UHGV virus genome: UHGV-0178594
Source: a virus
Direction: 5' to 3' (one strand)
DNA length: 64,000 nt
Shown: one piece after another, positions 9,974 to 53,740 of the stretch
Numbering within the stretch: the first letter of the stretch is position 1
How the letters are laid out: every line of letters starts with the position of its first letter
Notes under the pieces: model-generated
What the model saw: the letters and a program-made list of their open reading frames with translations, nothing else
What the model was told of the DNA's origin: nothing
Database searches by the model: none
Position numbers and translations under genes: made by a program

Positions 9974-10785
9974 ATTGGCAGCCTCCTTTGACTAAGTTAA
10001 GGAGCTACCGCGTGAGGTTCCAATCTCAATGGCGGTAGCACTGACTGGGTTGGAACTACCGGCGTCAAAGGGAACCGGCCTGCCTTTCGGCAGCCCAGCC
10101 AGCACTACCATTGATCTCTGAGCTAAACGCTAAGTATGGCTGTGCGATGGCATGACACAAAAAAAGACGCGTTCGGCGTCTGTGTCGCCTTTGACATTAT
10201 CCGGGGTTCCAATCCCGGCACCCGTTTTTCTAAGGTGCCGTAGAAATATACCCCACGATAATGCCAGGGCGCAACTGTGTGTTTTCTTATGCTTTTCTTT
10301 TCTTCTTTTGGGCTTGCTTGCAGGCGTAGGCCATTGCTTTAGCTTTCACTTCATCCAGCTTTCCGGTGATCACTTCTTTTCCGAGAGTGACAAACCAGTC
10401 ATAGCAACCGCCAGTGATGTTCTGGATTTGAAAGTTGAGGTAGCGAACGGTCATTTTGACACCCCCAGCGCGAGTAAAGAATGCAGATTATCGCGTGAGT
10501 GGCGGACAACGAGTGATGGGAAAAGACAGTAGCTGTTCATAGTGTAGTGACTCCTTGCTTTCGGAGCCGCCATCGACTGTTCCACGGTCTGGTGGCGGCG
10601 CAATAAAGGTTGGAACACCGTGAGTCAACGGGGGCTTTTCAGCCACCTATATTGCACCGCCATTGGTATGGCGGCGGCAATCATACGAAAAACCAAACGG
10701 TTTGTCTCAAAAAGTTGACCGGTGTACCAATCGGTTGTGAATGTACAACGGCGAATCTCACAATTCAACTTAAAATGTTAGAAAA

Positions 10786-11361
10786 TTAATTTATCAATTC
10801 AGTCACCATCTGATACAACGTCATTTCATCAGCATTGTGCCGCCTGAAATCTGCTTTGCCGCCTATTTTTCCATCAGCATGAACAGGAACCAACCAGGGG
10901 TATTGCTCGCGGATCTCTGCTGGCGCTGCGTGTTGATGGTGCCATTTACACAAAGGGAGGACGTATTTATGCGCGTTCTCTGCTGTTCTCCCGAAGATGT
11001 GGTGCAGGGATACCACAGGGCTATGCTGTCCGTGCATATGGCAGGCAATGCAGGGGAGAGCACCGATGGCAGTTTGTATCCGGCGCTCATCTGCTGTGAG
11101 TGTTCTGCCTTTCAGGCCGCGTGACGCGCGAGTTTTTTTGACAGGAGCAGAAGCGGCCTTCTCTTTTCTTCGCTGTTCATATTGCTTCGCTTTTTCAATT
11201 TTCTTTTGCCGATATTCAGGCGATGCGGCTTTTTCTCGCGCACGCTGCTGCTGGCGTTGAGCTTGCTGAAGACGCTTTGCCCTTTGTTCCTCCCGCCATT
11301 TCGGATCAGCCAGTTTTTGCAGGGCTTTTTGTGTCTGTTTCTCCCAATAGCTTTGCTTCAT
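10786..11361 (-). CDS. Ref-like HNH endonuclease (recombination enhancement function)
   Basis: Cys/His cluster LPCIACHMHGQH...LPLCKWHHQH; ORF track begins at TTG 11403, ATG at 11361 preferred; 34-bp palindrome immediately upstream. Confidence 0.55.
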   Translation of the reverse strand: MKQSYWEKQTQKALQKLADPKWREEQRAKRLQQAQRQQQRAREKAASPEYRQKKIEKAKQYEQRRKEKAASAPVKKTRASRGLKGRTLTADERRIQTAIGALPCIACHMHGQHSPVVSLHHIFGRTAENAHKYVLPLCKWHHQHAAPAEIREQYPWLVPVHADGKIGGKADFRRHNADEMTLYQMVTELIN

Positions 11362-11404
11362 AGAAATACCCGGTTTGTCTACATCGCCGCTATGGTTGAT
11401 CAAA

Positions 11405-11438
11405 TGTGTTAGAAAATCAAAATTGATTTTCTAACACA
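11405..11438. promoter_or_regulatory. 34-bp perfect palindrome, bipartite operator candidate (GTTAGAA-N14-TTCTAAC)
   Basis: TGTGTTAGAAAATCAA-AA-TTGATTTTCTAACACA in divergent promoter region between Ref-like gene and rightward early operon. Confidence 0.6.
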
Positions 11439-11633
11439 AAATGAAGATACTTTTTTTCAGACGCTATATCAGGAGGTCATGATGCTTGTCGCAATAAGTG
11501 CAATCCACCAGCAATCCGGTACAGAAATTGGGTTGCTATATGCCCTGTTTTTCACTGTCCTGGCGTTGTTTGAGCTGGGCATTGAACTCTTTGCTCTCAT
11601 CAACTTTTGCGTAACGTTCCTGGGGAAACTTTG

Positions 11634-13777: not shown

Positions 13778-13778
13778 G

Positions 13779-16324: not shown

Positions 16325-16356
16325 GTGTTAGAATATTGATTTTAATTTTCTAACAT
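16325..16356. promoter_or_regulatory. palindromic operator candidate (GTTAGAA-N14-TTCTAAC)
   Basis: GTGTTAGAATATTGATTTTAATTTTCTAACAT between phosphatase gene and 16398 ORF. Confidence 0.5.
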
Positions 16357-17393: not shown

Positions 17394-17397
17394 TGGA

Positions 17398-29617: not shown

Positions 29618-29689
29618 AGTACCCTCCGCAATAGGCGAGGGTACTTTACATTAAAATGCACTGTCTAAAAAGATTGTTAGAAAATTAAT

Positions 29690-30718
29690 TTATGAATCCA
29701 TCAGGCGACTATTTGCACCAACGGATGCCCCGCTACGGCGCAAATATCGCATAAGTGTTTCGGGCTTTTTCCATGTGCCTTCCTGCATGATCTCGACCAT
29801 TGACACCTGTTTCTCAGCCATATCAATTGCCGCACCAACACGCGCACTATGGCCTGTCCACGTCCGGTATCTTCCTTTGTTCGGCGTGGCATCTCGTTTG
29901 TTCAGCAACCCCCAGGCATCGCTGAATATTTTCTCCATTGCAGGTGCAGTAAGGGGAGTTGTCGTGATTCTGGCCTTATTACTGCGGTGTATTGGCGGGA
30001 ATAGCACCGCGTCCGGATGTTGACGAAGTCCGGACACCTCCAGCCAGTCGTTCAGTACGGCGGTAGTGCAACGAGAAAGCACCTTATCAAGTCCGGCGGC
30101 GGTCGTGATGGTCTTCGTGTGCGAAATATGCAGCGTTACAGTGTCACCTGTTTGGTCCAGATCTCCGACGCGGATGCGCGAGATTTCTGACATACGCATC
30201 AGGGTATTGTATGCCACGAAGAGAAACGCCCGATTGCGCAGGTCCACCAGCCGCTCGGAACGGGACAGCAATACGTCGAGCAATTTCAGATCATCCCACC
30301 GCAACGGTATAGCCTGGCCTGTTCGCTCGCCTTTTTCCGTTGCCGCTTCGCGCCGGATGCGCCGCATGGCCAGAGACACACTTTTATCGTCCGACAGCGG
30401 CGGGAGGCCACATTGCGAAAGCAGCATGTTAAGCATGGCATAGTGCTTATCAATGGTGGTCGAAGCCAGATCGGCCTCATGCAACTGGAGAAGATACTCG
30501 CGGGCCATTTCCGACGTAATCGGGAACCAGGGGCGCTGGCGCGAGTTACACCACCGCGCCCAGGAATGAAACACCAGACGGAGATCACGAAGTGTATTTG
30601 GGGCATAAGCTCCCTGGTCGTTCATGAACTGCATAAAGTTTTTTGCAGCTTCCTGGTATTCGGTGCCAATATCGCGCAGAAAACCACCAGAACCGCCGGA
30701 GATAACTAGTTCACCCAT
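29690..30718 (-). CDS. Cre-like tyrosine site-specific recombinase
   Basis: Extended similarity to P1 Cre (WFP...YLL.L...SLAMRRIRRE...RNRAFLFVAYNTLMR, SGHSARVGAA.DMA); 342 aa. Confidence 0.8.
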   Translation of the reverse strand: MGELVISGGSGGFLRDIGTEYQEAAKNFMQFMNDQGAYAPNTLRDLRLVFHSWARWCNSRQRPWFPITSEMAREYLLQLHEADLASTTIDKHYAMLNMLLSQCGLPPLSDDKSVSLAMRRIRREAATEKGERTGQAIPLRWDDLKLLDVLLSRSERLVDLRNRAFLFVAYNTLMRMSEISRIRVGDLDQTGDTVTLHISHTKTITTAAGLDKVLSRCTTAVLNDWLEVSGLRQHPDAVLFPPIHRSNKARITTTPLTAPAMEKIFSDAWGLLNKRDATPNKGRYRTWTGHSARVGAAIDMAEKQVSMVEIMQEGTWKKPETLMRYLRRSGASVGANSRLMDS

Positions 30719-30902: not shown

Positions 30903-31098
30903 GAAATCGGAACTTTTTTCCCAAAAAAACACCGACCAGATCACTTCGCAAATCCGTCAGCCATGCGGTAGCCGCTCCTGGTTACATTTTCTAATAGGAA
31001 CAATCAAAAAAAAGCGGTTTTATCCTTTACTCACCTTGTTATTCAGCATAAATTTGTCACAGGACTTTTATGTTAGAAAACTAAATCGAGTAGGAATA

Positions 31099-35511: not shown

Positions 35512-35543
35512 CTATTAGAAAATTAATATCAATTTGCTAACAC
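35512..35543. promoter_or_regulatory. degenerate palindromic operator candidate (ATTAGAA-N14-TGCTAAC)
   Basis: Upstream of Lpa-position gene; right arm abuts stop of 35543 ORF. Confidence 0.4.
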
Positions 35544-37542: not shown

Positions 37543-37647
37543 AGTGATTGTGATGGTCGGTGCTGAACTCCGACACAGGGTTGTAGCAAGCCCCGCAAAG
37601 CGCGCACTACTGTAGTTGCGGCACATCAGCCTGTGCATTCATCACAA

Positions 37648-37725
37648 CGGTAAGGGTACTTCGTAGGGATTCGAACCCTCTGCCAAGCTCGGCGATCTCC
37701 GACGTCGCAAAATACCCTTACCTGT
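37648..37725 (-). other. tRNA-like fragment / degenerate tRNA
   Basis: Contains GGGTTCGAATCCC T-arm inside an 8-bp closing helix but no canonical D or anticodon arm. Confidence 0.3.
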
Positions 37726-37730
37726 TGTGT

Positions 37731-37806
37731 TGGTGCCGGTTAACGGACTCGAACCGCTGACATCCTGCTTACAAGGCAGGCGCTCTACCAACTGAGCTAA
37801 ACCGGC
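37731..37806 (-). tRNA. tRNA-Thr (anticodon UGU)
   Basis: GCCGGTTTAGCTCAGTTGGTAGAGC...CTTGTAA...GGTTCGAGTCC...AACCGGCACCA. Confidence 0.8.
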
Positions 37807-37810
37807 AATT

Positions 37811-37897
37811 TGGTGGGGAGTGATGGAGTCGAACCATCCGAGTCGCAATGACAGTAGATTTACAGTCTACCCCGCTACCCCTACGGACTAACTCCCC
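37811..37897 (-). tRNA. tRNA-Tyr (anticodon GUA), type II
   Basis: 87 nt; anticodon loop CTGTAAA, long variable arm, T-loop TTCGACT, CCA end. Confidence 0.75.
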
Positions 37898-37902
37898 TAA
37901 AT

Positions 37903-37979
37903 TGGCGATGGTGGGTGGATTCGAACCACCGACCGACAGCTTAGAAGGCTGCTGCTCTATCCTACTGAGCTACACCATC
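37903..37979 (-). tRNA. tRNA-Arg (anticodon UCU)
   Basis: GATGGTGTAGCTCAGTAGGATAGAGC...CTTCTAA...GGTTCGAATCC...CACCATCGCCA. Confidence 0.75.
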
Positions 37980-38464: not shown

Positions 38465-39290
38465 CAAATATCCCACTCGCGGTATTGCCACTTAGGCGTA
38501 TGGTCAACCTGGCAACTCGGTGTCCTCAACGGGGAAGGAATAACCCCGCCATACTTACCGCCGCGCCTGTCGCGGTTATCGCTACGTATCAACATAAAAG
38601 CCGACTGCCTGAGCAAGATTCACTTTCAAAGGCCCGCAGAAAGGAATCCATAGTCGGCTTTTATCTTGAAGCGGCTCTCTCTCCGCCCGTCACCGTCCTA
38701 TCCCGGTTGTCGCGTTTGCCACGCCAGCCGTAACGAGGTTTAAAGTCTTTTCACGTTTTCATCACTCGACTGCCGTCTATGGCTGTTCGTTGCAGCGGGG
38801 GTGCCTCCCCCTGGGAATATCCCCGGCCTTACCCCATTCTTTCAAGACACAATGCAAGGCCACATCCGCATAGGTGCATTACCGCAACGTTAAGGAGACT
38901 CAGAGTCAGCAAAATAAGAGGAAAACCCAACTCTGCGCCTCCTTAACGTTGAGGATGTGCACTGATGATGACCCGATGCAGCCTGGCCCACTTAACATAC
39001 TCACTGCCAGATCATCATCAATGAACACCATAAAAAGACCTTCCGTGGCTCAAGTCACTGTCGTTTACTCCGTAAAATGCTCTCGCTGAAACCACTTTAC
39101 GCACTAAACCTGCCGGGCATGTATTTGCACGGTGCCGGAGCTTTCCCTTACCTTAAAATTTACTTTCTAACACTTAAAATTGTTTGATGCTGGTGGGGAA
39201 AGACAATGAAGTGACTATCAAACCCGCAAGCGACATGGGAAGCTCCCCACCAGCACGAAAAATTCTATGTTAAGTTAACTACATAATCAA

Positions 39291-39323
39291 TATGTTAGAA
39301 AAACAATTTTAATTTTCTAACAC
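39291..39323. promoter_or_regulatory. palindromic operator candidate (GTTAGAA-N14-TTCTAAC)
   Basis: ATGTTAGAAAAACAATTTTAATTTTCTAACACA, 4 bp from stop of 39325 ORF. Confidence 0.5.
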
Positions 39324-39324: not shown

Positions 39325-40533
39325 TTATTTCCCGTAAAGATTTTCAACTCCACCGTTCTTCTTATCCCACTCGTTCGCCCATACCCGGCAAGCATCAATT
39401 ATTTCCTGACGGCGATCGCCCTGCATGAACGGAATGCTTTCATGAAAGCTGCTTGGAATGCAGGCCACACTGAACACTGTATCAAACTCAGTCTGCTTGA
39501 TTGCCTCCAACGTCTCTGGACGCATTTTCAATTCGTCGATCGGTGCATCCTTAGAGTCCATAATCCGGCGATGCAAGCGTGGAAAATCCGTTTCAAGGTA
39601 CGCCATAATTTTATCTGCCAGACATTCGTCTATGTCGGTATTCCAGTCAGTTTCGAAGCCAGGAATTCGGTAGTAAAGCGGCGTTCCCCATACTGACGGG
39701 ATCACATCCATCGTCAGCAGGCGGCTGGTTCTGATTTGCTGATGGTAATTTGCCGTCAGCAACGCTTCGCCACGTTGCCCAGTCTCCGCGACCAGACCAT
39801 GCGGAAACTCATGGATATAGGCAATAGCTTCTCTTCCGTCATACATTAGCGGGAATGTCTCTGGCCTTTGCCCCATGCCACAGGCGCGATTCAGATCATG
39901 ACCAAGCTCTGAGCACTCTCGTTTCAATGTTTCAATAATGCTCTGCGCCGCTGCTAACTTTTTACGCAGTGTGACGAGTTCGCCTTGATACTCAACGCAT
40001 TGCTGATTTAGCTTGGTTAAACGCTCTTTTAGTTCCCGACGCTCTCTTTTCAGCGTGCGGTTATCTTTCTCCGCAACATCCAGTCGTTTTGTCAGGCTTG
40101 GCGGATAGTCTTTTTTGTAACGACTCAAATCGACTTCAGCAGATTTGCGCAGTGTATTTGCCTGCTCAAGACGCGCCTCCAGATTGCCGATCTCATTACG
40201 CATATTCGCGGCAAATTGATTAACTGCATCCCCCAGGCTTTCAACTGTCGCTGATACACCAGTGACTTGAGAAAAACGGATCAAGCCATCATTAACGGCT
40301 TGCTGATATTCCTCAAACTGATCCACCAGCTTATTGTAATCAACTGCCCCATCATCAAGGAGCTGGTTGATTTCCGCCACCAGGTTATCTGTAGTGGCAA
40401 TGACGCTCTCATGCAGTCGCTTTGACAGGTCATCGCCCGGATTTCGTTTCTGTATAAGCGCGATTTGTGTCCGCAGCGTTTCAATTGCGGTTGAGATGAT
40501 CTCCAGGCTTGATGATTCTACTTGCTGACTCAT
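39325..40533 (-). CDS. coiled-coil protein with C-terminal globular domain
   Basis: 402 aa; N-terminal ~200 aa heptad-rich; flanked by GTTAGAA palindromic sites and terminator 40606-40631. Confidence 0.5.
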   Translation of the reverse strand: MSQQVESSSLEIISTAIETLRTQIALIQKRNPGDDLSKRLHESVIATTDNLVAEINQLLDDGAVDYNKLVDQFEEYQQAVNDGLIRFSQVTGVSATVESLGDAVNQFAANMRNEIGNLEARLEQANTLRKSAEVDLSRYKKDYPPSLTKRLDVAEKDNRTLKRERRELKERLTKLNQQCVEYQGELVTLRKKLAAAQSIIETLKRECSELGHDLNRACGMGQRPETFPLMYDGREAIAYIHEFPHGLVAETGQRGEALLTANYHQQIRTSRLLTMDVIPSVWGTPLYYRIPGFETDWNTDIDECLADKIMAYLETDFPRLHRRIMDSKDAPIDELKMRPETLEAIKQTEFDTVFSVACIPSSFHESIPFMQGDRRQEIIDACRVWANEWDKKNGGVENLYGK

Positions 40534-40605
40534 GTTTGTTCCCTTTCTTGAAATTAGTTTTCTAACATATTTTATTAGTATGCAATTTCAATAAAAAGAC
40601 TCAGG

Positions 40606-40642: not shown

Positions 40643-40969
40643 TTAGACGTGTTGGAGTAGCATGTATGCCATATAAATCAAAGCTATCAGTACGACAACT
40701 ACCTCTGAAATTCTAAACGCGCGCTTTACTATCTGCCGCTCACCGTGGGGTATACCATCCGAGTATTCCTGATCCGTCATTTTCCCCAGCCAGCTTACCG
40801 ATAACAGAGCTGCATTCTCACTCATATCAAGTTCACTTACGGCCTCTCGTATAAGTGGCGCGGTTACTTTCCTGGAAGCAACTTTCATGGTTATGCTTCT
40901 GGTTCTTCCGGCGTCATCAGCAAACGTCAGATTTACGTGGTGTTTTCTGCTCAATGAACAAACTCCCAA
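40643..40969 (-). CDS. tail-anchored membrane protein
   Basis: 108 aa with single C-terminal hydrophobic helix VVVVLIALIYMAYMLL. Confidence 0.45.
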   Translation of the reverse strand: MGVCSLSRKHHVNLTFADDAGRTRSITMKVASRKVTAPLIREAVSELDMSENAALLSVSWLGKMTDQEYSDGIPHGERQIVKRAFRISEVVVVLIALIYMAYMLLQHV

Positions 40970-41165: not shown

Positions 41166-41609
41166 TTAATCAAGATTTACATATTCCGTGATAGCTTTTA
41201 TGGCTTCATCGGCACTGCGCGCCTCAAAGCAGTAATAGCCTGCTTCCGTGAGGCGAGTCATCCAGACGAGCTGTTCGGGAGTCAGACGGTTTCTCCCGTG
41301 CTTCATCTCAATGCGCATTCCGTGATACCCACCACGAGCAAGGTCAATAGAAAGGTCCGGATAGCCCTTCTTCTGACCTTCTGCCACCATCTTAATGGCT
41401 GTCCTTTTGCCTCTCAGGCCGCCGTTCGGTGTTGAGTGTGTGTGCTCATACACGTATCGCATGTTGCGATACAGCCAATCCAGAACGCGAACCTGTTCGT
41501 AATGTTCGTAATTCCGTTTTAATAAGTCAGGATTTCTTTCTAACTCTCTCAGTGCAGCAGCGTGCGGGGATATTTCAGAATACGCACTATGATGCCTGCG
41601 TCTTCGCAT
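41166..41609 (-). CDS. VRR-NUC domain nuclease
   Basis: PD-(D/E)xK-type motif GYPDLSIDL...GMRIEMKHG; ATG directly abuts a GTTAGAA half-site. Confidence 0.55.
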   Translation of the reverse strand: MRRRRHHSAYSEISPHAAALRELERNPDLLKRNYEHYEQVRVLDWLYRNMRYVYEHTHSTPNGGLRGKRTAIKMVAEGQKKGYPDLSIDLARGGYHGMRIEMKHGRNRLTPEQLVWMTRLTEAGYYCFEARSADEAIKAITEYVNLD

Positions 41610-41798
41610 CAAATTTCTAACACAAACTTCCTGAAATCATGAACACGATAATAACAAGAGCGTTAGTTTTATCAAAACCGAGGGGAATACTACTGAAGAG
41701 ATAGGCGGATGCAACAGGTCGGACTTGTTTTTAGAGTAAATGGTGATGCGGGTCAACAAGCCGGGTAAATTGTATGTCATTTACCCAACTTGTTATTT

Positions 41799-42059
41799 TT
41801 AATGGTTTATTTTATCAGGTTCGTTAATTTCCGTAACCGCCTTGTCGATAGCAATCATCCATCCTTCATAGGATAAATCATCAACAAGTCCCACCAGCTT
41901 ATCGTCAGTGTGCGGAAAATAAATCCATCCCCATTTCGAAGGGTTTTCTATATGCCGCAGGGTAAATACCCGCTTATAACGGTGGTATTCAAGGGCGTAT
42001 CCCTTCCCTTGTGAGTACGCTTTTAAGTCGTCGATCGTAAACCTACGATTCTTCCGCAT
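41799..42059 (-). CDS. hypothetical protein
   Basis: 86-aa ORF coupled to upstream ORF. Confidence 0.4.
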   Translation of the reverse strand: MRKNRRFTIDDLKAYSQGKGYALEYHRYKRVFTLRHIENPSKWGWIYFPHTDDKLVGLVDDLSYEGWMIAIDKAVTEINEPDKINH

Positions 42060-42532: not shown

Positions 42533-45500
42533 TTAGGCCGCATCGGCGATTATTTTACGCAGTTCATCTAACGAGTAACGCGTAGATACCATCCATGCAG
42601 GACGGTCAAAGTTCACATCAGCAACCGGGTTTGCTTCAAAATTCCAGAAACGCCCGCCAATCTTCTTAATCGCGTCTTTGGCGTTCCGTATTGTCGAGGA
42701 ACCAGGTTGGTCGGCAATGAGATAAACCGCACCGACGTCCTCGCTGACACTCCACCAGCGCCCGCGAACACGCGCCTTAGCGCGAATCGGCTTATCATTA
42801 ACCACAATGATATAGTCATCATTCGCCGCTTCATCAGCTCTTGCTTCAGCCACTGCCGCCTGCTCTTCTCTTTTGCTTTCAGCCTGTTCAAGCCTTTCCG
42901 CGATCTCTGATTCGGTGGCCCCGCCGTTTTTCAGCGATACATAGTCTTGCCACGTTGCTGATTTGAGCGCATCCGGCAACTCATTCACATAGTCACCGTC
43001 TTTCAACTCACGGGCGCGGCGGGTAGCCATTTCTACCAGGCGATTAACAGAAACAGCATCAGCAAAATCGTCCTTACTAATGTGTTTTTCATCAAATGCA
43101 TTGATGACAGCCCCCACCTTAATCCACTGTGATGCCGGTGATTCCAGGGGGTTATCAGCCTGGACTATGGCGAGTTTCGCTCCATCTACCCCATTATTCG
43201 CCAACTGTTCCAATGCCGCCCATCCATCTGCATCACTGAGTGATTTATATTGCTCAAACAATGCATCGCGCCAGGCCACCAGCGCAGAACGTGTTTTTTC
43301 GATCTTCGTCTTAATTTTGGCGATCTTGACCTGATTAAACATCCGTTCAATATCATCGATATTGCTAAAGGCTTTCATTCTGCCCTTGAATAAACGGTAT
43401 GCCAGCACGGTCCTCCAGAATGATTCCAGACCTTCTCCGGACGGTTTGCGGAACAAGCTAAGAATATCTTCAGAAGTGACTTTATTAAGCGAACGACCTG
43501 ACAGACCACGCCCAGCCATCCAGTTTTCGAACTCCTGGACAACATCATCCATCGTTGCCTGTGCGCCCCATGCCTGCATTCCCTGGATGTAATCATACCC
43601 ATACAATGCCTGGAGGAATCCCTCGCCGTCCACGATATTCAGCGGGTTATCACTGGCTTGTATTTTTGCCACTTCACGCTTCAGCGCCTCATCGTTGCCA
43701 TCTGGATATATCCATCGTTCAGGTGCTATATCCGATGCTCGCCCGATTTTTTGGCCTATCACGCCATCATAGGCCGATGACAGCGCGATCTGACCATCAT
43801 CTGTGCGATATGCCCAGTATTTAATAGCTGACCCACCGCCCCATGCATTACCAGGTTTACCAGCAATAACATTCATTACCCCATTGCGAATAGCATCATA
43901 GAACTGATCGCGAGTAAGTATTGTTGATAGCTGGTGGCACTGAACACCACGCGCAGCCGTTGCGCGCGATTCAGCTACCCCCTCTTCAAAAGTTACCGCT
44001 TCAATCACAGAGTCAAACGGCAATGTAACGATTGACCCCGGTGATCGAGCGTAACGACTTGCTCTATCCAGCCAGGCGATACGGCAGAGGTATTGTGCTT
44101 TTTCACCGTCAATTTTTTCCACCCGGACAATCGCTGTTGTTTCGCGATCATCAATGACTGCACGGTAATAACTACCTTTATGCAACAGGATATTCTTGTC
44201 AGTGCGCATATATTCCTGTGGGTTCTGAATAACATCGATACTGATATCCAGCACACCAGACTTAATAGCGCGCTCCACATCACCACGAGAGCGTTTCATT
44301 ATGGTATCCGCGTCTTTTGCCCTGGTGATCGCAAACCGCAGCACCCGCGCACGTTTTCTGTAGCTACTCAACTGCTCAAGCGCGAATTTTTGCCCATTCC
44401 TGTTCGTACCCGCTTTTATCAGGTCGTCAAGATTGCGCTGGTAATACTCTATCTGTTCCATCGCGCTTTTCAGTTCTGTCTCCATCATGCCGATATCTTT
44501 TCCGGCGGCGTTTGCCGCTTTCAGGTAGATATCGAGAGCATTGTTGGCCTCGCGCTGTGCTTTCAGTTTCAGACGTTCTTCACGCTCTTGCGCCTGGCGA
44601 GCCATGATTGCGCGGCGTTCTTCCGGGTTTGCCGCCAGCATAATAGCGCGTTCATCAGCATCATCCGCATCACCATTGGCGATCTCTGACATGTCGGAGG
44701 TCATCACCATCTTGATCCAGTCTTTCTTACGTTTCAGCGTATCCAGACGGAAGTCGTCGAATGTGCCTTTGCCACAATAGTAGTGAACATTGACCTTCTC
44801 TTGCGGTGAACCTACGCGCGCACCGCGCCCATTTCGTTGGTCGATACTGGCTGGTGTCCAGGGTAGTGTCAGGTGGTGGATATCGGTTGTCCCGATATGC
44901 AGGTTAATACCTACTTCAGCCTTCTTGTTACAGATAATGATGCGCGTGCGCCCTTCGTTATAGTCGGCGGCAATGCCTTCCATACCCTCAAGGCCAGCAT
45001 CATTTTTAGCTGAGAGATAATCCTCATATTGGGCAAGTTTGCTGTAGTAGGTTTCCCATGCCCCTTCTTTGTATTCACCGTTTTTATTCGGAGTAGGTTC
45101 AGTCGGCTTATTCACCTTCTTCAGCTTGATGCCGCCAGCCTGGCTAACGGTCGTCGCATTGATAATGCCTATCTCCTGCTCCGGCATTTGCAGTGCACTG
45201 GCGATAATACGGCGCAGCTTCTGGTGCTGGGCTTTTTCATCAATGAAGACAATTTGTTTACCGTTCTTCAGACCTTCACGAAGGTTTTCGATCAGCGCGG
45301 CATACTTCGGCGGGATGGGGTGTGATACCTGCTGCAGATCAATCCCGGCGGCAGCAATGGCCTTCAGTATTTCAGCTTCCAGTTCAATGCTGGCACGTAT
45401 TTCAACATGCGCCGGATGTTCACTAAAGGTGGTCTTCACTACCTTACTGGTGCGCGTACTAACCAGCCCACCAGCGCCGTCTTCTTCGGCCTCGTCTGCA

Positions 45501-48500
45501 TCATCTGCCACTTTACCGCCAGCTACTTTTGGCAGGGCATCAGCAATAGCTTTTACCTTGTCTGCAAGCTCAACGGGGAACTGGAATGTAATCGCACTGG
45601 CATACAGATCCGGATCTATAGCAACCTTATCCATGTCGCGGATGATGGAGAAGATGAAATCATCCGGTTTTTCGTTTGTGATATGCCCGTTTTCATCAAC
45701 CGTCAGCGCATCTTTACTACTTAACTCCTGTGCACGCTTACGAAGCTCTTCATAAGCAGCCTCCTGCTCCCCTGTCATCGGGATCTGCAAGGTATTCTCG
45801 ACAATATCAGGGATTTTAACCGTCGCCCCGACGTCCGCAGCAGTCTTCAGAGTAGTCCAGCGATGGAAAATACCACGCAGGCCATCAAGGTTCTGGAAGC
45901 CAACCAGCCCCTGCTTCTCTTCCACTTCCCCGGAAATTTTCTGGACCTGAACTGTGGCTGTTTTACCAAACACACGAACGAAATCATCAGGCGTAATGAT
46001 GCCCATGCGCATCCACTCTTCCTGCGGAATGACAGTAGACAGCATGTTGAAGGCATCAATCGGACTGTTCACCAGCGGTGTTGCCGTCAGCATGACTACA
46101 CCACGCCCGTTGTTGCGTTTCATCATGTACGCAGCTTTTACAGCCATGTCGCGGGCCATCTTGGATACTGCCGGGTTAGGCAAATATGCCAGTTGTCCCG
46201 CTTCACGCCCGGCATTAAAGGAGTTGCGGTAGTTATGCCCCTCGTCGGCAATCACGCTATCGAAGTTCATATCCTCAAAGTACGGGATATTCTGCTTCTT
46301 CGTTGTACCGGTATTCGCGGCCTGATCCTTAATCTTGTTCTTCTTCTGCGCATCACGGTGTTTACCAGACGCCAGGTCAAGACGCCCCATTTCCACAGCA
46401 TTAAAGACAGCTTGCTGTGAGTTCTCCTCGATGGTTTTTTCTCGTAGCGGGATAGACGCGAATTGTTCTTTTGTCATGATGACCGTTCGCCAATTTGACG
46501 ACGGGATCATGTTCATGCGCTGAACGATAACGGCGCTGGCGGACTCTTTCACAACATTTCTGGTAAGAGGCTGCCCGTTACTGTCGAGGCGGGGTTCGCC
46601 ATTTTCATCAAGCACCGGCGCGGTCAGAATATTGCCGTCTTCATCACGAACTTCATCCAGACCGATAAACATCATATTTGCGAAGGCATCAGCACTGTAG
46701 AAGCTCTGTGCCTCGTGATACCAGTTCTGATAAACCGCCTTCGGAACAACAATACACGTGCGTTTAGTGCGACCTGTTTCGAAGTTATACGCCTCAAGCG
46801 CAAGCGCGGTCGTGGTTTTACCCAGCCCGGTACCAAATCCCATGATGCCGCGCCCATCTTCTGACAAGCGACGAACTTCTTCATTCTGATAAGTCAGAGG
46901 AATGCGCTTTCCACTAATCCCTTCCAGGCCAAGCGGTGCGTTAGAGTGCGTGAACGGAATGAAGCCATTGAATGCGTCGTTATAGTCACGGGCTATCTGA
47001 TCCGCCTGCGGGTGGGTGCGTAACCAGTCGTTAAAGCTAACTTCCAGTTGAGCAATTTTATCCAAGTACTCGTTAGCGTTCTGCCCACGCGGTTTAACAC
47101 CGTTCAGGTAGTTTTCTAACTGGTTCAGGAAGCCGTCTTTATTGTTGGCCTTCTTGAACTCATTCCCGTTTTTGCCGTTTACGGTTCGTAGTTGATAGCC
47201 GGTAAATACCCCGTCCTTACCTTCGTAATCGTCCGGAGATACCAGAATGCCATCGACGACCTTCAGATCAGGTTCAGTGTACTTAAACTCGTCATAGCCC
47301 TGCTCTGCCAGGAACTCTTTTATCAAGCGGCGATCCAGCCAGCGGGCGTTCAGATTAACGGTGACTTTATTTAGTGGCGTGAAAATGCGTTTCTCTTCGA
47401 TTTTCGCCAACTGACGCTCAAAGTTCGCTTTCTGCTCACCTGTTGACGCATCACGCCAACCCACCAGCAATGTTGTTTTGGTTGCAATATCGCCGCTGGT
47501 GGCGCGGTCCATCGGCAGCAGGCAGCCATACCCATCAATAGCGATATCATCAAATTTCGCCAGGTATTCAAGGGCCGCGTCGTCGTCCTCTGGCAGTTCA
47601 CCAGCAAACGCCTCACGAAAGTCGCCCAGCGTTATAGGATTAAGGGCTACATCACTGAAAAGATGTGCTATCACTTGTTCAGGACGTGTAAAGTCAATAC
47701 CGGCAGCACCATCCGTTACATCAAGTCGCCCTGCCAGAAGGTCAGAAGTGGAACCATCCTGTTTCACATTGCCAGTGAACGTCATCCAGTTTTTAGCGCC
47801 AGCTTCAGCAAGCCCATTCAGCTTAATCGCGTGCGGTGGTCCATACTTCGCAACTTCTGCTGCCGCCAGGCGGGATGCATCTGCCAGTTTGTCATCAACG
47901 TTCACCCCCAGGTTACGCAAATCAAGTGCCTTGTTGATCAACTGCCCTATCAACGCACCGCGCATAACGCGCTCCCTGTCTTTTTCTCGCTGTTTGCCAG
48001 CAAAGCGAATCATTGCTGCCACTTCATCACTGACAACCGATGGATAGTCGGACGCGATCGCCGATATCTGGTCCCATGACAAAGCCAGAATCCCGTTTGT
48101 TGACTGGAACGCGATCTGCAGATCGCCAAACGTCGAAACACCATATCGACTTACATCAAGCGCGGAGGATTTGGTTGTCGTGTCCTTAACCCATTTCAGA
48201 CCATCAAACTCATGCCAGATACCGCCTACAAGGCGTTTATCGCCCACTTTCGCGCCCTGCCATGCCTGGGTAGTTACTCCGAGCAAATCCCAATTAATAC
48301 GGCTTTCAAAGCGGCGTGATAACGCGGTTTTCATCGACTCATTGGATACACGACCGTCCTTTTTCACCACCAGGGTATTGCGGAAGCTGGTGCGTTCCAT
48401 GTCGCCGTAAACAAATCGCTTCCCTTCGGTTGTAAACCATTTCCCTTTGAGGAAGGTATCCCAAAGGACGTTTGCCGATTTGAGCGTTGCATCATCCGTG

Positions 48501-49384
48501 TCGGGGATCATCTCCAGGAAGGTTTCCGGGTGTTTACGCAATACCCATACGTCCACCACCGTATCTGTACCGGATTCGCTGAACGTACCAGAAGGCATAC
48601 GATGCGCGCCCAAAAATTCCGCTTTACGGCTGACTTTATCGCGCAATTTTTTGTATTTCGTACCATCGGTCATGCCATTCGGCACCACCAATACAATTAG
48701 TCCACCAGGCTTAACCTTGTCGATTGTGCGCAGCACAAAGTAATTGCCAACGTTCTTCTCGTTTGCATATGCCGGATCAAGCCCGGCGACACCGGAACGC
48801 CCTTCACCAAACGGTACGTTACCAACAGCGTGATCATACATTGCGTCTTTCGCCGCCAGCGCCTCAAACGCCCCGATATTCACATCGTCTTCCGGGTGCA
48901 AAAGCTGGTTTATTCGACCGGAAATCGGAGACAGTTCGGCGCTGGTCATTATCATGCCCTGCCGTTTTGTCTCCTGGAAAATACCTGTGCCCGCTGATGG
49001 TTCCAGTACGTGCCCGCCATCAATACCGTAGTCAGCAAACAGATCCCATATACCTTCAGCCATAAACTGTGGCGTGTAGTATTCGTATTGGCTGCCCTCA
49101 CCATCTGTCAGGCCGCCTTCACCGGTATACCCGGCAAGAATCTGACGTTGTGCGTCAGTTAATTTCGCCCCATCGAAGCCGGGCGGAAGGGAATTAAGAA
49201 GATTTACTGCGGCGTTGTTTGCTGCCCGGCGTGTTTTCTGAATACTGACGCCATCGACTTTCTTAACGCCAAAGGTCACTACAGCTCGCGGTTTATGCAA
49301 CCGACTAACAATTTCAATCAGCGCCCCAATGCTGGTGGCCTGGCTAATTGAATCAATTATTTTGTCCAAAGGAAGCCCCCTCAA
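42533..49384 (-). CDS. DarB-like anti-restriction protein: N6-adenine methyltransferase fused to SF2 helicase
   Basis: 2283 aa (P1 DarB is of similar size as I recall); MTase motifs EPSAGTGIF and GNVPFG; helicase motifs GTGLGKTT, DEGHNYRN, LTATPLVNSP. Confidence 0.75.
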   Translation of the reverse strand: MRGLPLDKIIDSISQATSIGALIEIVSRLHKPRAVVTFGVKKVDGVSIQKTRRAANNAAVNLLNSLPPGFDGAKLTDAQRQILAGYTGEGGLTDGEGSQYEYYTPQFMAEGIWDLFADYGIDGGHVLEPSAGTGIFQETKRQGMIMTSAELSPISGRINQLLHPEDDVNIGAFEALAAKDAMYDHAVGNVPFGEGRSGVAGLDPAYANEKNVGNYFVLRTIDKVKPGGLIVLVVPNGMTDGTKYKKLRDKVSRKAEFLGAHRMPSGTFSESGTDTVVDVWVLRKHPETFLEMIPDTDDATLKSANVLWDTFLKGKWFTTEGKRFVYGDMERTSFRNTLVVKKDGRVSNESMKTALSRRFESRINWDLLGVTTQAWQGAKVGDKRLVGGIWHEFDGLKWVKDTTTKSSALDVSRYGVSTFGDLQIAFQSTNGILALSWDQISAIASDYPSVVSDEVAAMIRFAGKQREKDRERVMRGALIGQLINKALDLRNLGVNVDDKLADASRLAAAEVAKYGPPHAIKLNGLAEAGAKNWMTFTGNVKQDGSTSDLLAGRLDVTDGAAGIDFTRPEQVIAHLFSDVALNPITLGDFREAFAGELPEDDDAALEYLAKFDDIAIDGYGCLLPMDRATSGDIATKTTLLVGWRDASTGEQKANFERQLAKIEEKRIFTPLNKVTVNLNARWLDRRLIKEFLAEQGYDEFKYTEPDLKVVDGILVSPDDYEGKDGVFTGYQLRTVNGKNGNEFKKANNKDGFLNQLENYLNGVKPRGQNANEYLDKIAQLEVSFNDWLRTHPQADQIARDYNDAFNGFIPFTHSNAPLGLEGISGKRIPLTYQNEEVRRLSEDGRGIMGFGTGLGKTTTALALEAYNFETGRTKRTCIVVPKAVYQNWYHEAQSFYSADAFANMMFIGLDEVRDEDGNILTAPVLDENGEPRLDSNGQPLTRNVVKESASAVIVQRMNMIPSSNWRTVIMTKEQFASIPLREKTIEENSQQAVFNAVEMGRLDLASGKHRDAQKKNKIKDQAANTGTTKKQNIPYFEDMNFDSVIADEGHNYRNSFNAGREAGQLAYLPNPAVSKMARDMAVKAAYMMKRNNGRGVVMLTATPLVNSPIDAFNMLSTVIPQEEWMRMGIITPDDFVRVFGKTATVQVQKISGEVEEKQGLVGFQNLDGLRGIFHRWTTLKTAADVGATVKIPDIVENTLQIPMTGEQEAAYEELRKRAQELSSKDALTVDENGHITNEKPDDFIFSIIRDMDKVAIDPDLYASAITFQFPVELADKVKAIADALPKVAGGKVADDADEAEEDGAGGLVSTRTSKVVKTTFSEHPAHVEIRASIELEAEILKAIAAAGIDLQQVSHPIPPKYAALIENLREGLKNGKQIVFIDEKAQHQKLRRIIASALQMPEQEIGIINATTVSQAGGIKLKKVNKPTEPTPNKNGEYKEGAWETYYSKLAQYEDYLSAKNDAGLEGMEGIAADYNEGRTRIIICNKKAEVGINLHIGTTDIHHLTLPWTPASIDQRNGRGARVGSPQEKVNVHYYCGKGTFDDFRLDTLKRKKDWIKMVMTSDMSEIANGDADDADERAIMLAANPEERRAIMARQAQEREERLKLKAQREANNALDIYLKAANAAGKDIGMMETELKSAMEQIEYYQRNLDDLIKAGTNRNGQKFALEQLSSYRKRARVLRFAITRAKDADTIMKRSRGDVERAIKSGVLDISIDVIQNPQEYMRTDKNILLHKGSYYRAVIDDRETTAIVRVEKIDGEKAQYLCRIAWLDRASRYARSPGSIVTLPFDSVIEAVTFEEGVAESRATAARGVQCHQLSTILTRDQFYDAIRNGVMNVIAGKPGNAWGGGSAIKYWAYRTDDGQIALSSAYDGVIGQKIGRASDIAPERWIYPDGNDEALKREVAKIQASDNPLNIVDGEGFLQALYGYDYIQGMQAWGAQATMDDVVQEFENWMAGRGLSGRSLNKVTSEDILSLFRKPSGEGLESFWRTVLAYRLFKGRMKAFSNIDDIERMFNQVKIAKIKTKIEKTRSALVAWRDALFEQYKSLSDADGWAALEQLANNGVDGAKLAIVQADNPLESPASQWIKVGAVINAFDEKHISKDDFADAVSVNRLVEMATRRARELKDGDYVNELPDALKSATWQDYVSLKNGGATESEIAERLEQAESKREEQAAVAEARADEAANDDYIIVVNDKPIRAKARVRGRWWSVSEDVGAVYLIADQPGSSTIRNAKDAIKKIGGRFWNFEANPVADVNFDRPAWMVSTRYSLDELRKIIADAA

Positions 49385-49521
49385 AACCGTTAAATCCGCC
49401 TTAAGCGGTTCGGTTTGAGAGGGTATGGAGAATGTTATTTTCAGGGATGAACGACACTACCGTCAAAATCACATACTCACCATAGTTTGCCTACTTATTA
49501 ACCCATGAGCGGGAGAAATAT

Positions 49522-50030: not shown

Positions 50031-50038
50031 ATCACACT

Positions 50039-50251
50039 TCAAGTTACGATCCAATCATTACCGACTGCATCCGCCGTCGATAAATCGACTTCCCGGATCT
50101 GGTATCCATTAATACAAAACCATCCAGTAGTAGAGCTATTATCAGGCCAGACCCATACACCAACACTCCATGCTTTACGGCGGCACACTTCAGCCTGTCC
50201 TTCCCTGATTTTTTTTACCGCCTGCATGATGTCCATCACTCGCCTCCCCAA
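50039..50251 (-). CDS. DUF2829-like small protein (separate ORF here, fused to antirepressor in left copy)
   Basis: ...EVCRRKAWSVGVWVWPD...DWIVT; 16-nt overlap with upstream antirepressor ORF. Confidence 0.45.
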   Translation of the reverse strand: MGRRVMDIMQAVKKIREGQAEVCRRKAWSVGVWVWPDNSSTTGWFCINGYQIREVDLSTADAVGNDWIVT

Positions 50252-50943
50252 CCGATTACCTGGAATTGCCCCATCCTTGGGTGATACCAGCGTTTTCCTC
50301 GGTGTTCAGCCTCCGACATCATCAGGGTAAAGGCATTCATGAAGGGAGATAAGGCCACAATAGTACGACGCGACAATACCCCCTCTGGCGTCAAAAACTC
50401 ATGCGTATCTGTGGGGATCCGGTAAGCGTTGACCAGGTTACGGCATTTGGCTTCAGTCAGGCCGCATTTCGCCGCCAGTTGGCGGTAGCCAATGTAGCCT
50501 TCTGGTATGTTGCCTTTCTTGATCTGCTCGACGGTTTCAGCGACCTGGCTAACCTTTGACTCAACAGCATGAAGCCGCTTTTGCTGCTGAACTGCATTCG
50601 CAGCCATTGCAGCGATCATCTCTATTTCGGTCAACGGCTGGCGTACTTGTTCTTCCAGTTCGCGCCAGCGGTCCACCAGCCGGGCGGTGAATTCGGGAGA
50701 GAGCTGCGCAACGACAATAATGCTGTCTCGTTTGCCTTGCTCGCCTTCGAAGACGTAAGCCTCAACGCCACGACGCAATCCTAAGTTATTGATTTTTTCG
50801 AAAACAGCCATTGGCGGTTTTCGGATAATGCTTCGAGCAACCATACGCTCAATACTACGTTTAACGTCAGAGTGTTGACTTCCCACCAGCTCCGCAATCT
50901 CAATGCTGGTCATTGATAGTTTTTCGAGAATGCAGATATCCAT
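50236..50943 (-). CDS. antirepressor-like protein (Rha/Bro-N-type)
   Basis: Paralog of 8832..9758 N-terminal 230 aa; ~90% identical DNA stretches. Confidence 0.6.
   Translation of the reverse strand: MDICILEKLSMTSIEIAELVGSQHSDVKRSIERMVARSIIRKPPMAVFEKINNLGLRRGVEAYVFEGEQGKRDSIIVVAQLSPEFTARLVDRWRELEEQVRQPLTEIEMIAAMAANAVQQQKRLHAVESKVSQVAETVEQIKKGNIPEGYIGYRQLAAKCGLTEAKCRNLVNAYRIPTDTHEFLTPEGVLSRRTIVALSPFMNAFTLMMSEAEHRGKRWYHPRMGQFQVIGWGGE
50390..50760. repeat. ~0.4-kb direct repeat (right copy) inside antirepressor gene
   Basis: See left copy; same orientation, ~41 kb apart. Confidence 0.7.
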
Positions 50944-51167: not shown

Positions 51168-51494
51168 AGTTACGGCCTCGTAAGTTGATAAACAACCTGC
51201 GACCCGCTGTCAAACAGGTGGCAGGACGTGACAGGGTTGACAGACTGGCACTTACGAAACCAGCAGGCCGAAGCCTCCCCATCACGCCCCACCATAATTC
51301 GGGCGTAACGTGGTTTTACGGACACAAAAATACCGCAATATCGGAAATGTGCGGTTGTCCGCGTAAGTATTCAGGCTGTCAAACCTGGTCGCAGAATTTG
51401 CTACGACGGCATGAATATAAGCCTGAACATTAGAAAGATCAACAGAATTTTTATCAAATGCTGTTTTTTAGTGACAATGTAAATCATACATTCT

Positions 51495-51526
51495 TGATTA
51501 GAAACATCAATTTAATTTTCTAACAT
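51495..51526. promoter_or_regulatory. palindromic operator candidate (ATTAGAA-N14-TTCTAAC)
   Basis: Between RepL-like gene and icd-ant module. Confidence 0.5.
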
Positions 51527-51582
51527 ACATTTTCGAGCGATGAAATTCCCGCCGCACGGTTATTGTACAGTCAATCGCAACA

Positions 51583-52542
51583 TCATCCCCGAAAGCCCTC
51601 CGGAATTGACCAGTCTTCCCGGTCAAATTCAGACCGATAGCCACGCTGTATCATCAGGTCAAATGCTTCATTGATGGTTGCACATCCCTGGGAACCAGAA
51701 TAATCCATAGAGAAATCCAGGGCGCTGGATCGTTTGGGCTTATTCACTGTGGTAGCACTACGTAACCATGCAAATTTTTTTGCCAGTTTTTCAGCGGTAC
51801 GATACAGAGCCTGCCGTTTTGCGTACCCCTCGTCTGAACGACGCTTTGCAGCTCTCGCTTTTGCTGCCGCCAGGCAGTGGTTGGTATGTTCTTCCCTGAT
51901 TACTGTTTTTTTATCCAGCAAGCCATTATCCGCTTGAGAACTATCTGCTGGTGAAGCCTTTGGCTGAACCGCGCATGATCTTTCTCTTCTTTTGGCTATA
52001 GAGTGACTCTTATTTTCTATTGGCTGTTCATTTTGAACATGGGGGGGCTTGTTCAATTTGAACAGGGGGTTCCCAGTTTCAAAAAAATAACGAACCTTTG
52101 AAATCAACTGCTTAACCAGTTTTGTGGCGTTGGCAAATTTGATGCCCTGCTTACTCCCTATCTCCATTGCTACATGAATGAAGTGGAGAAATTGTGTTGT
52201 AAACCGGTACACGTTACACACCTGAGCATTGTTATTCGCTACCTGATGCTGCTTAACAAGCATTCCGCACTTCGTCGCTTCGGCAAATGCCCGGCGCACA
52301 GTAGAAATACTGCGTCCTGTAATCTCGGACATATCCGCATATGAGCGACGGATCATGTATTCATCGGTAGCTCCTGCCAGGTTGGCGAACTCGGCAATAA
52401 TGGCGCTATGTGAAGGGGAAAGAAAACCGCTATGACGAGCAAAAAAACTCAACTGATGACCTTTGATTTTTTTGTGGTATTCAGTGTTGTTTTTATACTC
52501 AGAAGTGTTGAAAGTAACTGAAACTGAATTTAAAATACTCAC
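51583..52542 (-). CDS. RepL-like replication protein (lytic replicon type)
   Basis: N-terminus MSILNSVSVTFNTSEY...; internal direct repeats suggest an origin inside the gene as in P1 repL/oriL. Confidence 0.45.
   Translation of the reverse strand: MSILNSVSVTFNTSEYKNNTEYHKKIKGHQLSFFARHSGFLSPSHSAIIAEFANLAGATDEYMIRRSYADMSEITGRSISTVRRAFAEATKCGMLVKQHQVANNNAQVCNVYRFTTQFLHFIHVAMEIGSKQGIKFANATKLVKQLISKVRYFFETGNPLFKLNKPPHVQNEQPIENKSHSIAKRRERSCAVQPKASPADSSQADNGLLDKKTVIREEHTNHCLAAAKARAAKRRSDEGYAKRQALYRTAEKLAKKFAWLRSATTVNKPKRSSALDFSMDYSGSQGCATINEAFDLMIQRGYRSEFDREDWSIPEGFRG
52026..52070. repeat. two ~20-bp direct repeats inside repL-like gene (candidate oriL iterons)
   Basis: GTTCATTTTGAACATGGGGGGG and GTTCAATTTGAACAGGGGGT. 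Confidence 0.35.
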
Positions 52543-52741
52543 CAGATAGTTCCGTGAAAAATCTATCTACCGTATAAATCTATGCCAGTGGATTTATACA
52601 CCCAAAAGCCGCTACTCAGCGGCTTTTGCTTTTTTTGGCAGTCGCTACCGGAGCAGTGACCGCGATCCTACTCGATCACGTGCCGTCGGATCAACAGTGT
52701 ATAAAAACACACTGTGTTAGAAAATTAAGCTAGCTTTTAGC

Positions 52742-53740
52742 TCACATCCTCTTAGACACAAAGATCAGCGGAGTCACCGTCTTGTTCTCTTTCACCGGTA
52801 TTTCTTGTTGTTTATTGGCTGATATTGGCAGACCATAAGTGGCATTAGCCCCCAGGGATTCAAGCATCGCCGCGACAATGCGTGCATCATCCTCTGACTG
52901 CATACGGCAGAGCGCCCGGCGCTGTTCTGCGCTGATAAAAACAGGCATTTCCTGGATAGCATCACGCAAAATACGGCGGCATTTCTTCGCGTTCTCCCCC
53001 TGGCTTTCCATCATCGCGGCCTGGTCGCGTAGTTTGTCGCGAAGCTGCATATTTTCCACTTCAAGATGTATCAGTTCCGACTCCAGAACTTCACGTTGTG
53101 CTGATTCGAATATGGCTTGCTGACTCTTCATTGCTGAAAAGTGGTGAACCAGATCCGTAGCAGCATTATCGGTAAAACCTTGTTCGATAAGTGCCGCATG
53201 AATCGCCGCGTCGCGTTCTTCTGCTGATTCAAGCATCAGGCTTTTCTTGTCGAGGCTGATATAGTTAGGCACAGTTACGTAATCAAAACCGTGAAAAGAC
53301 TTTACCAGGGATACAGAGTAATCTGGACCAGATGTAGCCCATGACCAACCACCTGCGCAAGAATTAATCATACCCTGAACAATACGTCCGGTGTCCGTAT
53401 CCAGTATTTCCTGTGTATGGGTAACAATGCCGTTGTCGTCAATTGAAATGTCGATAGTCCTGTTTGACGGCACGTTCTCCAATACAACAGGCTTCCCATC
53501 TACCATCACAACAGAGACTTCCGGCAAGTCCAGGCTTTTCGTTTTGTTATAGTGCATCGCCCGGCGACCATGACCATAATAACCATACATCTCACCCAGT
53601 GCGATACGCTCTTTTGTTTCTGGCGAGTTGAATGTGTCTCGTACCGACTGGATAACGTAATTGCGATTGTTCTGAGGTGTGTGTTTGCGGATTTTCTCTA
53701 CCAGGGAGAAGCGATCCGTAACGGTATTCAGTGATTGCAT
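52742..53740 (-). CDS. hypothetical virion-associated protein (possible prohead protease)
   Basis: 332-aa ORF directly downstream of and coupled to 561-aa portal-like ORF; assignment is positional. Confidence 0.35.
   Translation of the reverse strand: MQSLNTVTDRFSLVEKIRKHTPQNNRNYVIQSVRDTFNSPETKERIALGEMYGYYGHGRRAMHYNKTKSLDLPEVSVVMVDGKPVVLENVPSNRTIDISIDDNGIVTHTQEILDTDTGRIVQGMINSCAGGWSWATSGPDYSVSLVKSFHGFDYVTVPNYISLDKKSLMLESAEERDAAIHAALIEQGFTDNAATDLVHHFSAMKSQQAIFESAQREVLESELIHLEVENMQLRDKLRDQAAMMESQGENAKKCRRILRDAIQEMPVFISAEQRRALCRMQSEDDARIVAAMLESLGANATYGLPISANKQQEIPVKENKTVTPLIFVSKRM

Follow-up and report, generated by a model that had tools for sequence, protein, structure and literature searches.

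The closest described counterpart of the system reported here is the ImmC immunity system of phages P1 and P7. In P1, 22 dispersed, asymmetric 17-bp operators of the C1 repressor are reported to control repL, lpa and other genes (PMC8546580). We analysed a 64,000-nt stretch of the virus genome UHGV-0178594 (hereafter, the window), which on sequence grounds is a D6-like relative of phage P1, with 80-94% identity to Escherichia phage D6 along most of the sequence. It carries a dispersed motif built around GTTAGAA, the sites of which are very probably the operators of a D6-type C1 repressor encoded at 31099-32136. The network resembles P1/P7 ImmC (Op2, Op51, Op53, Op72, Op86, Op88, Op94, Op99, etc.) in comprising more than 10 sites scattered over the genome, in being built from an asymmetric unit of ~17 bp that occurs singly or as inverted (bivalent) pairs with fixed spacing, in having a homologous repressor gene that adjoins a recombinase/lox-type site and pac genes, and in its apparent targets, namely ref, c4-icd-ant, repL, lpa, the tRNA operon, the pmg genes and c1. 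It differs in the operator itself, which reads TGTTAGAAAA-N3-A-N2-T here and ATTGCTCTAATAAATTT in P1. The same phage pair offers a similar case in Cre/lox (P1) and Dre/rox (D6), where a homologous protein also has a changed, non-cross-reacting DNA target, although a recombinase and a single site are involved there, and a repressor and a regulon here. No operators or promoters are annotated in the GenBank record of D6, and searches of the literature by text and by sequence string returned nothing relevant; an earlier description in the D6 genome or immC papers is possible.

The palindrome GTTAGAA-N14-TTCTAAC has five matches in the window at up to two mismatches, compared with 0.27 expected, and none of 100 shuffled sequences reached five. 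The matches start at 11408, 16327, 35514, 39294 and 51497, and the spacing is 14 bp in each of the five. Half-sites (TGTTAGAAAAT, at most one mismatch) are similarly overrepresented, with 17 matches against 1.47 expected and a shuffle maximum of six. A preliminary description of this DNA, made from the letters alone, had proposed a C1-like operator network of five full and seven half-sites with an invariant 14-bp spacing; the excess over shuffled background and the spacing are borne out, and every coordinate in it was correct, although the weak site at 30980-30996 (-) had been overlooked. A weight matrix of 22 columns trained on the 18 half-sites of the window holds its information in ~17 positions and is non-palindromic, giving the operator consensus stated above. 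Scores are distributed bimodally, with 16 sites at 20 bits or more and the 99.9th percentile of the background at -4.7 bits; as the matrix was built from the sites themselves, this separation describes their distinctness from the background and adds no independent support. At the eight single sites, a second arm placed at the bivalent spacing would score -12 to -48 bits, no more than background; the unit is hence asymmetric and can occur without a partner. Altogether, the window contains 13 operator-like loci, five bivalent and eight single, all intergenic:

S1, 10776..10792, plus strand: monovalent, TGTTAGAAAATTAATTT, 28.2 bits; overlapping the Ref-like stop codon; 7 nt upstream of the -35 in TTGAAT-17-TACATT, a leftward promoter-like element leading to an isrK-like RNA, the second C4 RNA, icd and ant
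S2, 11407..11436, unstranded: bivalent with perfect palindrome arms, 29.2 and 30.1 bits; divergent region between the Ref-like gene and a rightward early operon including ppp; central -35-like TTGATT
S3, 16326..16355, unstranded: bivalent; between the ppp phosphatase gene and a pdcB-like (DUF968) operon; central TTGATT-17-TATTTT
S4, 29675..29691, plus strand: monovalent, 24.9 bits; right after the stop codon of dre (Cre-like), upstream of an orf117-dut operon
S5, 30980..30996, minus strand: weak monovalent, 12.5 bits; between rox (30871-30902) and c1
S6, 31071..31087, plus strand: monovalent, 25.9 bits; c1 leader, ending 11 nt before the c1 ATG and overlapping a promoter-like TTGTCA-17-AAAACT
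S7, 35513..35542, unstranded: bivalent; upstream of lpa (35043-35435, minus strand)
S8, 39156..39172, minus strand: monovalent, 25.0 bits; downstream of pmgS, towards the tRNA cluster
S9, 39293..39322, unstranded: bivalent; abuts the -35 of a leftward promoter-like TTGATT-17-TAGAAT that faces five tRNA genes (36951-37979, minus strand) and tci-like genes
S10, 40551..40567, minus strand: monovalent, 29.3 bits; 17 nt upstream of the pmgS ATG, overlapping the -10 (TATGTT) of TTGAAA-16-TATGTT, with a terminator-like hairpin just before
S11, 41606..41622, minus strand: monovalent, 20.8 bits; at the pmgM start; the predicted start site of a promoter-like TTGATA-16-(TG)TATTAT is ~20-35 nt upstream
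S12, 51496..51525, unstranded: bivalent, one arm strong and one weak; encloses the -35 (TTGATG) of a promoter-like element that leads leftward to the a1/b1 targets, a C4 RNA (51214-51299), icd and antirepressor
S13, 52715..52731, plus strand: monovalent, 25.2 bits; between the pro stop codon and the start of repL (51583-52542, minus strand)

Three further weak operator-like candidates were noted: TGTTAGTTAATAGATTT at 8825-8841(-), between an antirepressor stop codon and a regulator gene; CATTAGAAAATAAAGAT at 3895-3916(+), scoring 10.5 bits at a gene start; and, as a possible site, TTTCTAATG at ~51430-51445(-), within the second promoter-like element of the c4 region.

Even on an over-extended map of open reading frames (ORFs), by which 89% of the window is coding, nine of the 13 loci are wholly non-coding and two more merely touch the end of a gene. 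The sites at 10776-10792 and 31071-31087 are coding solely under this map, in the case of 31071 due to an over-long c1 ORF, and they are intergenic or overlap a stop codon under the gene ends annotated in D6 and in the near-identical plasmid CP104667 (which is not collinear with the whole window and was therefore not used as its gene map). Relative to the adjacent downstream gene, sites are oriented both ways, with S6, S10 and S11 in sense and S1, S4 and S13 in antisense; such a mixture fits an operator and not a directional promoter element.

The dispersed sites of the two lineages are mutually exclusive. A matrix made from 15 annotated C1 operators of P1 (reference record AF234172, in which C1 operators and late promoters are annotated) retrieves 24 sites in P1, two in D6 and two weak sites, at chance level, in the window; conversely, the GTTAGAA matrix retrieves 19 matches in the window, 15 in D6 and a single weak one in P1. 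Among the sites of D6 is one at gene 23. The comparison of sequences supports the view that the GTTAGAA motif replaces the C1 operators of P1. Furthermore, most of the 13 loci have a positional counterpart among the annotated operators of P1:

Oref (upstream of ref) and Omat (end of ref): S2 and S1, respectively
Oc4 (overlapping the -35 of the promoter for a1/b1, c4, icd and ant): S12
Second Oc4-like position: S1, upstream of the second C4 RNA with its isrK-like element, icd and antirepressor
OrepL (upstream of the lytic replication genes): S13
Olpa (upstream of lpa): S7
Oban, bivalent (heading the tRNA-tci-ban operon): S9, also bivalent
OpmgR and O26 (pmg genes): S10 (pmgS) and S11 (pmgM)
Oc1 (c1 autoregulation): S5 and S6
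Odmt (hrdC-dmt operon): a bivalent D6 site right upstream of hrdC-dmt, ~700 bp before the start of the window

The paired sites differ in geometry. Here, the conserved cores occupy the outer ends of a 30-bp bivalent site at a distance of 21 bp (two helical turns), whereas in P1 the span is 28 bp and the TCTAA cores are 11 bp apart (one turn), so that both types of pair would place two proteins on one face of the DNA. With its reciprocal matrix counts, P1-equivalent positions, and single as well as paired forms, the network conforms to the C1-like system of non-P1 specificity that had been proposed for it, and the whole appears to be a P1 immunity regulon that differs in operator code and pair geometry.

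The candidate repressor is the 345-aa product of 31099-32136, which is 80% identical to the C1 protein of D6, where the orthologous gene is labelled prophage repressor. In a BLASTP comparison with the 283-aa C1 of P1, identity is 21% over 241 columns (E 1e-7), a divergence that would be sufficient for a new specificity. Relatives of the window protein carry the precomputed Pfam assignment PF27008 (Phage_P7_repressor_C1), and the gene sits in a dre-rox-c1-pacB-pacA-lpa arrangement, the synteny of which holds in four divergent loci. These results, together with S6 in the leader, agree with the earlier placement of a C1-like gene at the P1 c1 position. An exhaustive search with a C1 profile yielded 93 cluster representatives, mostly of 250-290 aa and matching residues ~5-245 of the query; the N-terminal ~245 residues thus constitute the family core, to which the D6 type adds a helical C-terminal extension absent from the shorter P1 protein. 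The genes to which the argument refers are as follows:

ref-like, 10786-11403, minus strand
dre, 29690-30718, minus strand
rox, 30871-30902
c1, 31099-32136, plus strand
pacB, 32174-33682, minus strand
pacA, 33682-35046, minus strand
lpa, 35043-35435, minus strand
five tRNA genes, 36951-37979, minus strand
pmgS, 39325-40533, minus strand
pmgR, 40643-40969, minus strand
pmgM, 41166-41612, minus strand
darB, 42533-49384, minus strand
antirepressor, 50236-50943, minus strand
repL, 51583-52542, minus strand
pro, 52742-53740, minus strand

The rox site (TAACTTTAAATAATGCCAATTATTTAAAGTTA) is intact between dre and c1. Two loci for C4 antisense RNA (Rfam RF01695) were detected, at 10028-10115(-) and 51214-51299(-), the former accompanied by an isrK-like element (RF01394; 10160-10238, -) and the latter by an a1/b1 target element (RF03163; 51368-51420, -). 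Downstream of each lie an icd-like gene and an antirepressor gene, so that the window has two immI-type c4-icd-antirepressor operons compared with one in P1. S1 more probably heads the second of these operons than being just an analogue of Omat. The immC block is 99.6% identical to a plasmid from an E. coli urine isolate and is matched by 195 plasmid records. As to the remaining content, the tRNA cluster encodes Met-CAT, Ser-TGA, Thr-TGT, Tyr-GTA and Arg-TCT, whereas the set in the D6 record is different (Ser, Thr and Asn) and is annotated on the opposite strand. The Chi sequence GCTGGTGG is present in 45 copies in the whole window, a ~28-fold excess over the ~1.6 expected from composition, and is biased in strand (31 copies on the minus strand and 14 on the plus strand).

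All 13 sites have orthologues in D6. The D6 copies of S6 and S10 are 100% identical and that of S1 is 94% identical, and the counterpart of S3 is likewise bivalent; in several other pairs the second arm is degenerate in D6, suggesting that valency evolves while occupancy is kept. More distant comparisons are provided by four loci (L013, L014, L015 and L047) in which C1 is 43-50% identical and the dre-c1-pacB-pacA-lpa synteny is kept. In these loci, GTTAGAA cores recur behind dre, near pmgS or pmgM and, in two copies, ahead of c1; L014 and L015 also have the core upstream of lpa. The counterpart of S5, weak in the window, is strong in such relatives (26.5 bits at 9909-9930 in L013). In a five-way alignment of the dre-c1 spacer, where mean column identity is 48%, the invariant islands are rox, the S5 core TTTTCTAA(C/T)A, and ATGTTAGAAAA just before c1; rox is nearly invariant, with L015 deviating at a few positions. 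The region upstream of lpa displays the same pattern of conserved core islands. Collectively, the alignments indicate that the GTTAGAA core is probably under purifying selection. The site S4 is conserved after dre not only in the four loci but also in two others (L048 and L049) matched by the dre segment only. Both keep the half-site after dre but, having no c1 within 7 kb, carry no weight for or against C1 as a natural swap. In these two resistance plasmids, one IncFIB and one IncY, the D6-type half-site (L048 7089-7110 and L049 7172-7193) lies behind the stop codon of the dre-like recombinase gene, and gene and half-site may be a relic of a D6-like element.

We propose that one C1 molecule would occupy each asymmetric unit of ~17 bp, binding as a monomer, and that two inverted units with cores 21 bp apart would form a bivalent operator. 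In the lysogen, C1 at the 13 loci would occlude or flank sigma-70 promoters and by binding repress ref, the two c4-icd-antirepressor operons, repL, lpa, the tRNA/tci operon, two early operons and several of the pmg genes, with c1 itself under autoregulation, presumably through S6. With lpa repressed, the late operons, which have a box of their own (AAATCACA-N7-YANNNT, see below), would be silenced indirectly. In S12, S2 and S3, the dyad centre is occupied by a -35-like TTGAT(N), with a -10-like hexamer beyond the distal arm, and the position of S11 downstream of a good promoter-like element suggests a roadblock.

Several observations weigh against this proposal. The assignment to C1, which we infer from the observed motif with its statistics, positions, conservation and reciprocal absence, is one of analogy and parsimony. 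The hexamers named above are weak consensus matches in AT-rich DNA, and scans for promoters found no more than in shuffled sequences; moreover, S7 lies ~20 bp upstream of the sole promoter predicted for lpa, and neither S4 nor S13 overlaps a promoter convincingly. At the sites, identity between the window and D6 is not clearly above that of the flanks, so that the argument from conservation is carried by the more distant relatives. The P1 and D6-type operator matrices bear no significant likeness to each other (column-shuffle p ~0.34), and the change in specificity is thus untraceable base by base; a shared sub-pattern seen by eye (AAT(A/T)AATTT, or TTAGA reversed) was dropped on the same test. 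Finally, the 86-aa product at the lxc-syntenic position (41799-42059), the sole candidate compared, has no similarity to P1 Lxc (E 5.6).

Among the alternatives, the one that survives best assigns the sites to another phage DNA-binding protein, such as the regulator at 8455-8793 or a helix-turn-helix protein. The motif has no physical tie to C1 in this analysis, several further predicted DNA-binding proteins are encoded in the window, and the lxc-syntenic candidate just mentioned is no recognizable Lxc homolog. However, no regulator of this phage group other than C1 is known to act through many dispersed asymmetric operators (PMC8546580), and P1-type operators are gone from exactly the places where the motif occurs. 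In addition, a site is present in the c1 leader of every relative examined, and all motif-bearing loci also have the dre-c1-pac-lpa block, although it was by this block that they were selected. We therefore consider a different cognate protein improbable.

Fainter still is the prospect that the motif represents the core of sigma-70 promoters (an extended -10, TGnTAGAAA) of early genes which have no dedicated repressor. It is true that TGTTAGAAT at 16326 makes a good extended -10 and that the motif lies 12-25 nt upstream of the start codons of c1 and pmgS. Yet 17 of the 18 sites have an A where the -10 hexamer needs its critical last T, a conserved departure from the consensus; the single sites S1, S4 and S13 point into the 3' ends of convergent genes; and neither the conserved A and T located 7 and 10 bp past the core nor the fixed-spacing palindromes are promoter features.

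The preliminary description had also considered a late-activator box, that is, recognition of GTTAGAA by Lpa at D6-type late promoters. Lpa of the window is just 34% identical to that of P1, which makes a changed box plausible, and the window has hardly any P1-type late boxes (AAGTNACTT-N4-TANNNT), a single perfect one being at 6286. TGTTAGA-N4-TAAWWT, found in many of the sites, imitates the 9+4+6 geometry of the P1 late promoters, and some of the GTTAGAA sites precede pmg genes. Like the P1 Lpa late promoters (a -22 box AAGTNACTT plus a -10), the motif is a short conserved box at many gene boundaries, but it is not situated at late operons. Instead, these bear a different conserved element, AAATCACA-N7-(T/C)ANNNT, which can be read by eye upstream of about a dozen late operons of D6 and of which seven of nine matches in the window closely precede late genes and are correctly oriented:

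gene 7: 2570-2590, minus strand
mat: 7292-7312, minus strand
darB: 49420-49440, minus strand
peptidoglycan hydrolase: 49466-49486, plus strand
portal: 55472-55492, minus strand
ddrB: 57841-57861, minus strand
lydA: 61631-61651, minus strand

In six of the seven (gene 7, darB, hydrolase, portal, ddrB and lydA), the distance to the start codon is 27-35 nt, with mat at 135 nt. The total of nine, compared with 3.1 in shuffled sequences, is a modest excess, and the argument is one of placement and not of count. As the late operons have their own box, the late class is separate from the GTTAGAA motif. The latter is found ahead of ref, repL, c1, the antirepressor operons and lpa itself, in P1 the early or immunity genes under C1 control, and its orientation there is mixed. 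We accordingly give almost no credence to Lpa as the reader of GTTAGAA, whereas AAATCACA-N7-YANNNT is probably the D6-type Lpa-dependent late promoter, the counterpart of the P1 element. The perfect P1-type box, AAGTGACTT-TCAT-TAATCT at 6286-6304(+), co-exists with the D6-type boxes; it is located between gene 26 and mat, and is identical in D6 (71096).

Lastly, the location of the sites at gene boundaries, several right behind stop codons, and the palindromic form of the full sites might suggest module-boundary recombination sequences, host-factor sites or terminator hairpins, but this is exceedingly unlikely: 11 of the 13 sites are more than 500 bp away from the homology breakpoints with D6, the two nearer ones being at the rox/origin break of the D6 record; P1, which has the same host, lacks the motif (one weak match); and single sites cannot form a hairpin, while the arms are AU-rich and have no T-run. 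In a survey of ~100,000 species-representative genomes, the exact pattern GTTAGAAWAW-N8-ATTTTCTAAC, present three times in the window, was found in 30 scattered stretches, none from Enterobacteriaceae, as isolated matches that form no networks. The module-junction element and the generic host site raised in the preliminary description are hence both disfavoured. Readings of the palindrome as an integration host factor site or a terminator were dropped on inspection by eye. Six of the exact matches in the survey (L022, L033, L034, L035, L036 and L046) come from Sphingomonadales (five, among Sphingomonas, Sphingopyxis, Porphyrobacter and a Sphingomonadaceae metagenome-assembled genome) and Aquidulcibacter (one), and may represent an unrelated conserved site.

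Returning to C1 as the probable cognate repressor, its predicted structure provides an additional lead. The E. coli protein Tus acts as a monomer on a long asymmetric site. C1 was modelled with AlphaFold2 from a 12-sequence alignment (mean pLDDT 84, pTM 0.54), and in a Foldseek comparison with the PDB the only significant matches were to four structures of Tus-Ter complexes from E. coli (probability 1.00, ~304 columns, E 4e-8 to 2e-6), the next match having an E of 0.3; the TM-scores with Tus are modest, 0.37-0.43. By this measure the modelled C1 qualifies as Tus-like in fold, which we regard as a lead rather than a finding. Sequence-based comparisons gave little: Pfam Ter (PF05472) had no match in 12 members of the C1 family at E up to 10, a search of PDB sequences with the C1 profile had no match, and HHalign found nothing with shallow C1 profiles and a weak signal with a 67-sequence profile (probability 13%, P 0.0023), aligning C1 86-186 to Tus 146-258. 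A structural search of BFVD with the C1 model likewise returned no significant match. The literature searched contained no mention of a relationship between Tus and C1, and no solved structure of a C1-family repressor turned up.

Tus is autoregulatory, acting through TerB (PMC8707476). The distance from the end of TerB (ATGTTGTAACTAAAGT) to the tus ATG is 10 nt in E. coli K-12; S6 (ATGTTAGAAAACTAAATC), which is oriented likewise, stops 11 nt short of the c1 ATG. Both proteins would recognise a long asymmetric site. They differ in that C1 would be a repressor with many promoter sites and not a replication-fork barrier, and in that no conserved G-C 'lock' position is evident. It is possible, though we put it somewhat short of an even chance, that P1- and D6-type C1 repressors are Tus-fold monomers which clamp a long asymmetric site with inter-domain beta-strands, and that Tus/Ter and C1/operator share ancestry.

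If C1 does bind these sites, they would constitute a second, non-overlapping repressor/operator code for the P1-type immunity circuit and would explain why P1-like and D6-like plasmid-prophages are heteroimmune. For D6-like elements, which are common in E. coli and Salmonella, the early, immunity and late regulons would become annotatable from sequence; an orthogonal single-site repressor would also be available for engineering. The structural lead matters more than the operator code. Were the Tus-like fold true, it would offer a concrete, testable model of how one protein reads a 17-bp asymmetric site. The operators described here would then in effect be Ter-like sites, with orientation-dependent roadblock effects possible at S1, S4 and S13 directly after genes. 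It would also bear on the origin of the enterobacterial Tus/Ter system; given shared ancestry, Tus would be a domesticated phage-plasmid repressor, or the reverse.

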